Positions 25,204 to 27,777 of a DNA stretch of 47,981 nt are shown here, piece by piece. Below the pieces are notes generated by a model. That model was not told the DNA's origin. It saw nothing but the letters and a program-made list of their open reading frames with translations, and made no database searches. A program made the position numbers and the translations under genes. Source of the DNA: a virus (taxonomy: Duplodnaviria > Heunggongvirae > Uroviricota > Caudoviricetes). The DNA lies in IMG/VR virus record IMGVR_UViG_3300022468_000772, positions 150,224 to 198,204 of that record. The stretch is one strand, 5' to 3'. Position 1 is the first letter of the stretch, and every line of letters begins with the position of its first letter.

Positions 25204-25242
25204 ATGGATTGTATAGCCCTTTAATAGTTAGTTTCAATCACT

Positions 25243-25270
25243 ATTCTATAACTGATCACTGATTTGTCAA
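25243..25270 (-). promoter_or_regulatory. sigma70-type promoter for the gp55-gp47-gp46 operon
   Basis: TTGACA-N16-TAGAAT about 40 bp upstream of gp55. Confidence 0.75.
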
Positions 25271-25291
25271 CAAATCCATATATTCAGGCAA

Positions 25292-25756
25292 GCCGCAACC
25301 CGTAGGATGATAAAACAAAAGAATCAAAAACAACGGGGTTGCGGTTCTATGTGTTATCTATCCTACTTCGAAGAGATATTATTCTCTAGCTCTTGCTACT
25401 TTCCGTGTCTCCATAAATAGAGTCGTACTGATAACGCATTCCTATTTTCCTTATCGACCGAGTTTTCATCCCATATGTTGTGATGGGCACAGACTCCGTA
25501 AATCTATTCGTGTTCGATAGATTCAACTGTGTTGGGTATCATCCTTTTCAGGTGGTCGTTTACCAATCCATATGGAAGACATGGATTGCCTGCGGGTTGC
25601 GAGTTTACAGGGAATGAAGATTCTATATTCGGATGGGTGCTAACAATGCACCGTTTTTTAACGCCAACGTTTAGTCTTCGAACTTAAACGGCGACCCCTA
25701 CTTTTGACACGTGCCTAGGATTGGGCAAATTTGCTGATAAGTGTCACCAATCAGCC
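25292..25756 (-). ncRNA. candidate large structured non-coding RNA (unassigned family)
   Basis: No ORF; upstream TTGACA-N16-TAATAT; at least 9 hairpins including a GAAA tetraloop and nested long-range pairings. Confidence 0.5.
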
Positions 25757-25761
25757 ATGAA

Positions 25762-25789
25762 ATATTAGATCGTATTTGAAGAGTGTCAA
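25762..25789 (-). promoter_or_regulatory. sigma70-type promoter firing into the non-coding gap
   Basis: TTGACA (overlapping the gp4 stop)-N16-TAATAT; predicted +1 near 25755-25756, where the first hairpin begins. Confidence 0.6.
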
Positions 25790-26250
25790 GTTTTAGATGG
25801 TCGCTTTTTCAGACCAAGCTCGTATTCGGTCATGATGATAAAATCAATCCCTCTTTCTTTGCACCAAGCTCTTGCAGCTTTCCATTTTGACATATTTTTT
25901 ACGTATGTCAACACTGCTTCCTGATAGCGCTTTGTGTTTGGATTTTTGGGTGGAACCGGCATCTGTGTTTCGATGAATGGTTTGATTTCCACCAGAAAAG
26001 TCTTAATCTCACCAGTGCGTGTTTTCACCTTGATCAATGCATCTGGAAAGTACCGGTGCATACGCTGATCAGTCTCGCAAAGATATGGTATCACCAATTC
26101 TTCGTTTGCATAGTGCAGCACACTTGGGTTGTTGTCGCATTCATGAAAGAATCTTCGCTCCCAATTGCTTCTCAGCGTAATGTTGTTTGGGTCACCGGCA
26201 TATTTTTCGGGGTTCTTTGGTACCCACTTTTTAACAACTGGTCTAGCCAT
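25786..26250 (-). CDS. gp4: head completion protein (TnsA-like nuclease fold)
   Basis: PKNPEKYAGD, RSNWERRF, EELVIPY, HRYFPD, LVEIKP, KWKAA. Confidence 0.93.
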   Translation of the reverse strand: MARPVVKKWVPKNPEKYAGDPNNITLRSNWERRFFHECDNNPSVLHYANEELVIPYLCETDQRMHRYFPDALIKVKTRTGEIKTFLVEIKPFIETQMPVPPKNPNTKRYQEAVLTYVKNMSKWKAARAWCKERGIDFIIMTEYELGLKKRPSKT

Positions 26251-26428
26251 TATTTCTTAGTTCCTGCTCTCGTTTAAGCGATGATGCAATCATGTCCAAT
26301 TCAAGGGACATTTCCCATGGCATCATGTTCTCTATGCTCTCTGTACTGTAACTGTAGCGATACCTGAGTAGGTGGAGTGCTTTGTACAACTCCCCTAATG
26401 AAATCCTACTCAGGCTTAGAGGAAAAAA
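26243..26428 (-). CDS. gp51: gp51-like baseplate hub/tail assembly chaperone segment; no canonical start, in the -1 frame of gp26 (not in ORF track)
   Basis: FFPLSLSRISLGELYKALHLLRYRYSYSTESIENMMPWEMSLELDMIASSLKREQELRNNG*; YS..EIENM.PWE is the gp51-like signature. Confidence 0.75.
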   Translation of the reverse strand, partial: FFPLSLSRISLGELYKALHLLRYRYSYSTESIENMMPWEMSLELDMIASSLKREQELRNNG

Positions 26429-27093
26429 TTGGTAAATCCTGTGGTGGTTCTATTGTGATCCAGACCACATTTCTTGCACTTGTATTTGCTGTGCAATTGA
26501 ACCATAGGCATCTTTTTAAGGAATGCACTTACCAACTTCTGTTGCCGTGGCGTCATGCTCTCGACAAACTCAATTTTTTCTTCAAGTGACCAATCAAGTG
26601 TCTCTTCATCTGTGTAAACTGCAGTGATGCAATTAGCCACAACTTCAAACGATGCTTCTGCATTTGTCTTGATTAGTTTTGCAAAATCCAGAATGGATGG
26701 ATGCTCAAGTTTTACAGTGTACTGAGTACCTTCGATCTTGAACAAAGTATCCTTTGGTGGCTCTGGTAAAACAGTCGCTTCTGTCACATCAATTTCAAAT
26801 TCTGTTTTCGCGTCTTTGTCGCACGTGCATCCACCAATCATGTCAATCAATTCACCAATTGATTTAGAACGAATCTGGAGATAGATGTACTCCACATCAT
26901 AGTAAGGGATTTTCTTTGGGTCTAGATCGGTGCATGCTGCAATCACGTTGTTGATTGCGATAGCCACGGTATCGATATCAGACTCTTGCAGGGCCAACAA
27001 CAGTGCTTTTTCTTCCTTTACCGTAAAAGGTCTGAAAGTAATTTTCTTACCTGTTGATGGTTGCGTTGTCACATATGTTGGTTGAATGATCAT
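26416..27093 (-). CDS. gp26: baseplate hub assembly protein
   Basis: PSTGKKITFRPFTVKEEKALL, DVEYIYLQIRSKSIGE, C-terminal CKKCG...GFTNFF. Confidence 0.9.
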   Translation of the reverse strand: MIIQPTYVTTQPSTGKKITFRPFTVKEEKALLLALQESDIDTVAIAINNVIAACTDLDPKKIPYYDVEYIYLQIRSKSIGELIDMIGGCTCDKDAKTEFEIDVTEATVLPEPPKDTLFKIEGTQYTVKLEHPSILDFAKLIKTNAEASFEVVANCITAVYTDEETLDWSLEEKIEFVESMTPRQQKLVSAFLKKMPMVQLHSKYKCKKCGLDHNRTTTGFTNFFL

Positions 27094-27764
27094 ATTAATC
27101 TAATTCCTAAATCGGTATAAACTGGTGTTTCGAAATCATAATCGCTTTGCTGAATTTCGAGGTTCGCAGGTTTTGGTTTTGTAATAACTAACGGTTCGGG
27201 AACACTGGTTTTAGCATCCCCTTCAATATTATTCATAGATGTGTAGTAAACATCCTCAAATACAAACTCTACGTTTAAATCAAGAACCGATGCTGCCCCA
27301 GAGAAAGACAATTCTAAGTTGTTAATTGTTTTGGGGTAGACGTTCTTATATTCGTATTTATATGTCACTTCGTCTGCTTGGTTCAACAGATAAAGAGTCA
27401 GTGTAGGTGCAGTATAACTTTCTGGGTAATTAAACTTTCTGTTGTATGGGACAATTAACTGTTTCCATGCATCAAAAAACTGTTTAACCTCAAAATCTTG
27501 ATCAACATAGAAATTCAGAACCAAATTCTGGTAATCGATATCATACGCATATTTTCTCCGCACACCATTTTCTACAAAGTTATCATTGGTAGCCAAAAAC
27601 ATATGCGGTGTCTGTGCAGCATGGCACCACAGTGATGTTAATTCGCTATTAACCTTTCCAGCCAAACCCTCTGGTGGAGTGATAGTCACATAAAAAAGGT
27701 TTTGTCGCGCAATATTACGACTGCGCAGATGCGATGAAAATTCTGATAAGGTAGGTGCTGACAT
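27090..27764 (-). CDS. gp54: baseplate tail tube initiator
   Basis: ARQNLFYVTI, CHAAQTP, LNFYVDQDFEVKQFFDAW, YKNVYP; ATG at 27764 preferred over GTG at 27776. Confidence 0.8.
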   Translation of the reverse strand: MSAPTLSEFSSHLRSRNIARQNLFYVTITPPEGLAGKVNSELTSLWCHAAQTPHMFLATNDNFVENGVRRKYAYDIDYQNLVLNFYVDQDFEVKQFFDAWKQLIVPYNRKFNYPESYTAPTLTLYLLNQADEVTYKYEYKNVYPKTINNLELSFSGAASVLDLNVEFVFEDVYYTSMNNIEGDAKTSVPEPLVITKPKPANLEIQQSDYDFETPVYTDLGIRLI

Positions 27765-27777
27765 TTGTTGCTTCACA

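Follow-up and report, generated by a model that had tools for sequence, protein, structure and literature searches.

Locus organization and family assignment

The window, the whole 47,981-nt stretch of DNA that was analysed, belongs to an uncultured T4-like phage with a 198-kb genome, and on its minus strand a gene for gp26 runs into an open -1 frame that encodes a gp51-like segment (Table 1). The 3' end of gp26 reads ACC AAT TTT TTC CTC TAA, with the stop at 26418-26416, and the heptamer T_TTT_TTC lies in the X_XXY_YYZ phase (AAT TTT TTC), one sense codon ahead of this stop. Read from C26422, the -1 frame continues for 59 codons (PLSLSRISLGELYKALHLLRY...) to a stop at 26245-26243. Joined to gp26 residues 1-224, these 59 codons would give a predicted fusion of 283 aa with the junction ...TNFF/PLSLSR and the junction tryptic peptide TTTGFTNFFPLSLSR. 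The initial annotation of this DNA, made from its letters, had described an in-phase slippery heptamer near the end of gp26, an open -1 frame of 59 codons and a fusion of about 283 aa, and each of these is borne out by the sequence.

Table 1. Features of the gp26 locus in the 47,981-nt window
Feature	Coordinates	Strand	Remarks
Tail-tube-family protein (gp54/gp19-like), upstream neighbour	27776..27090	-	228 aa; phrog_45, E 5e-34; PF06841 weak
gp26, putative short form of tail assembly chaperone (TAC-N)	27093..26416	-	225 aa; matches to PF12322 and phrog_150
AGGA, SD-like element	26440..26437	-	8 nt upstream of heptamer, over a conserved Gly codon
Slippery heptamer T_TTT_TTC	26428-26422	-	X_XXY_YYZ phase
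-1 frame extension, gp51-like C-terminal module	26422..26243	-	59 codons + stop; phrog_634, T4 gp51 similarity
Stem-loop, putative frameshift stimulator	26415..26362	-	outer arms 26415-26405 and 26372-26362; inner hairpin 26393-26374
TTG	26389..26387	-	no other start-like codon precedes the conserved core; rejected as start
gp4-like head completion nuclease, downstream neighbour	26250..25786	-	phrog_218, E 2e-51; PF08722

Runs of the form TTTTTTY occur 24 times on the two strands of the window, and the heptamer by itself therefore means little. Only the run at 26428-26422, however, combines an in-phase position at the 3' end of a long ORF with a stop shortly after it and a -1 frame that stays open over a long distance. 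Dinucleotide-preserving shuffles predict 57 +/- 10 such runs, and their depletion is consistent with slippery runs being selected against in a genome densely packed with genes.

The extension offers little by way of a start of its own. The first ATG in its frame lies 96 nt past the slip site, which upholds the earlier claim that no ATG precedes the conserved core. The TTG, also correctly described as lacking a properly spaced Shine-Dalgarno (SD) sequence, is directly abutted by GGGGAG with zero spacer, and the corresponding codon is TTT in the three nearest relatives.

Residues 5-224 of gp26 match PF12322 (T4_baseplate) with an E value of 4e-49 and 167.6 bits, against a curated cut-off of 24.5, and the protein also matches phrog_150 (E 1e-47). 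The -1 extension matches phrog_634 ('baseplate hub assembly catalyst'; E 2e-8) and aligns with residues 212-244 of T4 gp51 (BLASTP, E 0.001). It also matches positions 244-281 of phrog_150, the last 38 positions of that family, which means that some phrog_150 members carry the tail in frame. The source record, rated 100% complete, contains a single match to PF12322 and a single match to phrog_634, both at the gp26 locus, so that a long form could come only from recoding.

Upstream of gp26 and its extension lies the tail-tube-family gene, and downstream the gp4-like gene, whereas the homologs of gp48, gp53, gp5, gp25 and gp6 are divergently oriented relative to the locus. No tape measure gene was found adjoining the gp26 locus, nor anywhere in the genome by the phrog_1283 or phrog_790 profiles. 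Pelagibacter phage HTVC008M (L090, 1171-2994) shows the order tail tube, gp26, gp51 tail, small ORF and annotated tape measure, which is the classical chaperone position; this order is lost in the window's phage, where gp4 follows. The gp4-like gene starts with an ATG that lies over the final codons of the extension (AAT AAT GGC TAG; 26250-26243, minus strand), and the gene could, besides its own initiation, be translationally coupled to a minority of shifted ribosomes. Between gp4 and a gp55-like gene, the approximately 580 bp at 25204-25785 contain no ORF of at least 60 aa. When the 2.2-kb region was compared with GenBank phages at the DNA level, no matches were returned.

Conservation of the proposed slip site and arrangement of genes 26 and 51

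Eighty IMG/VR loci were fetched, of which 65 are distinct at the junction and encode gp26 proteins with 29-56% identity to that of the window. All 65 have an in-phase T-run located 0-24 nt before the gp26 stop, and in all of them the -1 frame encodes a gp51-like tail of 55-81 aa, counts that overstate independence because the relatives are phylogenetically related. The heptamer is T_TTT_TTY or T_TTT_TTA in 63 of these relatives and G_TTT_TTY in the other two. The run has 6 T at 47 of the loci and 7 T at 16; one locus has 5 T, and one lineage 9 T. The first Phe codon of the slip site is invariably TTT (65/65, against a background of 73%), and the codon before it ends in T in 63/65, being AGT, AAT or GAT in 59 and AGC, AAC or GAC in none; the conserved Phe-Phe residues partly explain the T-run. 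This survey of gp26 3' ends agrees with the expectation, set out in the initial annotation, of a conserved heptamer with the gp51 tail in the -1 frame. Tails in variable frames, which would have spoken against the proposal, were not seen.

Conserved coding begins at the slip site, ahead of any ATG. In the largest group of relatives the first ATG stands 57 nt past the slip site, within the conserved motif ALMQHH. Over these 57 nt the synonymous share of codon differences is 0.43 in the -1 frame versus 0.18 and 0.07 in the other two, and close relatives exchange the Ser codons TCA and AGC in a stretch where gene callers predict nothing. Judged by its substitutions, the stretch evolves as coding sequence in the -1 frame.

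Named phages extend the pattern. Among 12 GenBank phages with the frameshift layout that were checked, 11 have both the in-phase T-run and the -1 gp51 tail, the exception being Serratia phage phiMAM1, which has the -1 tail with only GTTTTC. The layout with a T6-7 heptamer is shared by S-RIM8, phiM7, Mosig, HTVC008M, OLIVR5, Astolliot, LPCS28, Ps15, AS-yj and Desulfovibrio phage 7757. In Ackermannviridae, represented by phiMAM1 and Vibrio phage VP-1, the tail is likewise in the -1 frame and the run is shorter, with 4-5 T (GTTTTC and GTTTTTC, respectively). An ATG in VP-1 overlaps the gp26 stop (TAATG) where the conserved tail begins. In this family coupling or re-initiation may replace or supplement frameshifting. 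GenBank records of relatives annotate the tail as a separate gene of 44-58 aa ('baseplate hub assembly catalyst') or not at all.

T4 itself is arranged differently. T4 gp51 (249 aa) comprises a PF12322 domain over residues 1-201 (E 4e-52) and a tail matching phrog_634, the same C-terminal module as the window's -1 extension, whereas T4 gp26 (208 aa) comprises the PF12322 domain only. Genes 26 and 51 are thus paralogs that encode the short and long forms. The earlier statement that the two are separate in T4 holds insofar as there are two genes; they are not two halves, since T4 gp51 is a full gp26-like domain plus extension, that is, a fusion. T4 gp26 aligns with the window's short form, ending in ...GLKEFF against ...GFTNFF. 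The two T4 paralogs are divergently transcribed, and gene 26 has no T-run (GAG TTC TTT) and a closed -1 frame, in contrast to the single gene of the window with its T-run and open -1 frame.

A separate gene 51 is also found in PhAPEC2, Klebsiella phage 15882-3-1, VR26, Melin, RB49 and ZHF. Vibrio phage phiKT1024 (OM249648.1; L098, 611-1953) carries tandem short (216 aa) and long (229 aa) gp26 paralogs, with GGT TTC TTC at the corresponding site, which adds a third arrangement to the frameshift and the divergent genes of T4. None of the eight phages that encode the long form separately, the seven with gene 51 and phiKT1024, has the T-run, whereas five of the eight keep Phe-Phe, coded as TTC TTT or TTC TTC. 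The T-run is therefore retained only where recoding would be needed. Two members of the Straboviridae outside the T4 group, Cronobacter phage LPCS28 (GAT TTT TTC) and Aeromonas phage AS-yj (AGT TTT TTC), keep the frameshift layout with the tail unannotated, and the two-gene state thus looks derived within this family.

Sequence elements flanking the heptamer

Six nucleotides after the heptamer, GCCUGAGUAGG (26415-26405) pairs with CCUACUCAGGU (26372-26362) to form the outer stem, of 11 bp, of a predicted stem-loop with a minimum free energy of -23.8 kcal/mol (z -2.9; none of 200 shuffles was as stable). The outer 10 bp are kept in 7/7 members of the clade, whose gp26 proteins are 59-100% identical, with one compensatory pair and one G-U pair; the stem in the clade begins 6-7 nt downstream of the heptamer and measures 10-11 bp. 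Among codons for invariant amino acids, four of seven in the stem arms never change, versus none of 14 elsewhere in the extension. The arms also encode the conserved residues LSR and HLLR, and the fully compensatory pair is the only one among the seven sequences. Taken together, the position and conservation of the stem-loop suggest that it is probably a frameshift stimulator in this clade. The hairpin proposed initially, CCUCUAA/UUAGGGG, was not upheld: neither the minimum-energy fold nor the centroid fold contains it, and it is in competition with the conserved long stem.

In relatives beyond about 60% identity the stem is not conserved and other or weak downstream folds take its place. A conserved downstream structure common to the whole family was considered and rejected, as shapes differ between clades and many are weak. 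Downstream folds across the relatives are, on average, more stable than controls (mean z -1.0 vs -0.2; Mann-Whitney p 1e-4).

On the upstream side, the Gly codon that overlies the SD-like element is GGA or GGG in 45/63 relatives versus 33% of the other Gly codons in these genes, a bias to be read with the conservation of the residue, which partly explains the GG-rich element. Such codons yield AGGA or GGAGG-like words. The AGGA of the window could possibly act as an internal SD stimulator.

Short and long forms of a putative tail assembly chaperone

An AlphaFold2 model of gp26 (pLDDT 92.7) allowed comparison with known folds. When the model was compared with 48,161 PDB chains, the top three, all matching residues 1-88, were 2ob9, which is the tail assembly chaperone of HK97 (Z 7.4, rmsd 3.5 A over 78 aligned residues), 3fgx (Z 7.4) and 3klu (Z 7.0), with the next at 4.7. 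These Z scores are moderate, and a Foldseek search of the PDB with the gp26 model gave no significant match and ranked 2ob9 11th, with a probability of 0.35. All three top chains are named as tail assembly chaperones, with citation of Pell et al. 2013, in PMC9603447. As modelled, the N-domain of gp26 has the chaperone fold, that of a HK97 gp13-like spiral subunit. The remainder of gp26, some 140 aa, forms an additional domain in which four Cys are conserved. Across 45 gp26 homologs Cys89, Cys206, Cys209 and His213 are invariant and Cys91 is nearly so, a set that suggests a zinc-ribbon-like site in the domain after the chaperone fold.

The explanation that best accommodates these observations, and which we consider very likely, is that one gene yields both a short and a long tail assembly chaperone through a -1 ribosomal slip on UUUUUUC. 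Most ribosomes would stop at the gp26 TAA and release the 225-aa short chaperone. A minority would slip back by one base, with two tRNA-Phe on U_UUU_UUC, and read the further 59 codons to give the long form, the C-terminal module of which would correspond to the C-terminus of T4 gp51. The pair would then serve this T4-like phage as tail assembly chaperone in the manner of lambda gpG/gpGT, with the stem-loop probably, and the AGGA possibly, raising the slip rate in this clade. The central proposal of the initial annotation, that gp26/gp51 are the G/GT equivalent of the T4 superfamily and are expressed by recoding, is accordingly supported by comparative, structural and genomic evidence. More tentative, and on balance somewhat doubtful, is the compound proposal that the slip in this clade, rather than being unaided and of low rate as in lambda, is driven by AGGA, heptamer and a conserved two-level stem-loop with frozen synonymous sites, which together would set a higher or tunable long:short ratio, and that the single-gene frameshift form is ancestral, genes 26 and 51 of the T4 group having been derived by duplication.

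The same 283-aa fusion would result if RNA polymerase added one U on the T-run in some transcripts. The conserved element is after all a homopolymer run, which in one lineage reaches 9 T. Efficient slippage by bacterial polymerases, however, needs about 8-9 or more T, and the runs are short, with 5-7 T in 64/65 relatives and 4-5 T in Ackermannviridae; they always keep the X_XXY_YYZ phase, and the conserved downstream stem-loop fits ribosomal pausing. Short runs together with a stem-loop at typical frameshift spacing favour ribosomal -1 frameshifting, and transcriptional slippage is considered improbable. The title of Vladimirov et al. speaks for it; in the passage of PMC10885494 that cites the work, that title is taken to refer to separate short and long genes.

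Were the gp51-like ORF translated by itself, with initiation at the TTG at 26389, at some non-standard codon or anew once gp26 has terminated, a free peptide of about 48-59 aa would result instead. GenBank annotations of 44-53-aa 'baseplate hub assembly catalyst' genes and the overlapping ATG of VP-1 at the start of the conserved tail are in keeping with such a product. Yet the TTG is not conserved among the nearest relatives and lacks an SD at a proper distance, the first ATG in most relatives falls 57 nt inside conserved coding sequence, and the frame is -1 in every one of the 65, whereas the frames of independent genes would vary. In addition, the T-run vanishes exactly where a full-length long form is separately encoded, and T4 gp51 and phiKT1024 show the tail working joined to a gp26-like domain. 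A free peptide is likewise considered improbable, slightly more so than transcriptional slippage. That there is no recoding at all, the -1 ORF being a relic and gp26 the sole product, is very improbable: the extension is under strong purifying selection across very distant phages and is the only gp51-like sequence in the complete genome, and gene 51 is essential in T4.

Frameshifting at gp26/gp51 is not a new idea. According to the passages of PMC10885494 and PMC12846349 that cite them, Vladimirov, Gautam and Davidson (Virology 2022) identified gp26/gp51 as the chaperones of T4-like phages. PMC10885494 describes T4-like phages in some of which a short gene and a longer fusion gene take the place of frameshifting, and PMC12846349, citing Vladimirov et al., refers to poly-T -1 slip signals in the TAC-N genes of T4-like phages. 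Both patterns are reproduced among the phages compared here. The window shares with that system, as so described, the family (PF12322, phrog_150, phrog_634) and the short/long logic, and carries a PF12322 match above the cut-off and a gp51-type C-terminal module on the predicted long form; with the frameshift reading published in 2022, its phage is a clear but ordinary instance, differing in being unannotated and uncultured.

If the frameshift reading is correct, GenBank and gene callers miss the extension or call a shortened 'gp51' of 44-53 aa where the actual long form is a fusion measuring about 280 aa, and T4-like phages would conform to the near-universal rule of short and long chaperones. 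Frameshift, tandem paralogs and divergent paralogs would then form a natural series on the replacement of recoding by gene duplication.

In lambda the heptamer, G_GGA_AAG, works without a stimulator, whereas that of the window is followed by the conserved stem-loop. In other respects the layout resembles lambda gpG/gpGT (Levin, Hendrix and Casjens 1993; Xu, Hendrix and Duda 2004), in that the short form ends just past an in-phase heptamer, the second ORF overlaps the end of the first in the -1 frame, the long form would consist of the common N-terminus and a -1 module without its own start, and the modelled N-domain matches solved chaperones. The two differ in that there is no sequence similarity, gp26 has its additional Cys-containing domain, and the window continues with gp4 in place of a tape measure gene. 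P2 E/E+E' likewise belongs to a contractile-tailed phage; its first ORF carries a T-rich heptamer, TTTTTTG, close to its end and continues into a -1 extension. By sequence, however, the P2 pair (Christie et al. 2002) is of another protein family, and it lies directly before the tape measure gene T.

With E. coli dnaX (gamma/tau) the window shares a three-part layout of upstream SD-like element (a candidate only in the window), heptamer and stem-loop a few nucleotides downstream. The 11-bp stem with its 6-nt spacer and z of -2.9 falls within the dnaX-type arrangement, in which a stable stem-loop lies 5-9 nt downstream, and its stimulatory role is a predicted one. The SD of dnaX lies 10 nt upstream of the heptamer as against 8 nt for the element here, the stimulatory role of which is putative, and the shifted product is shorter in dnaX and longer here.
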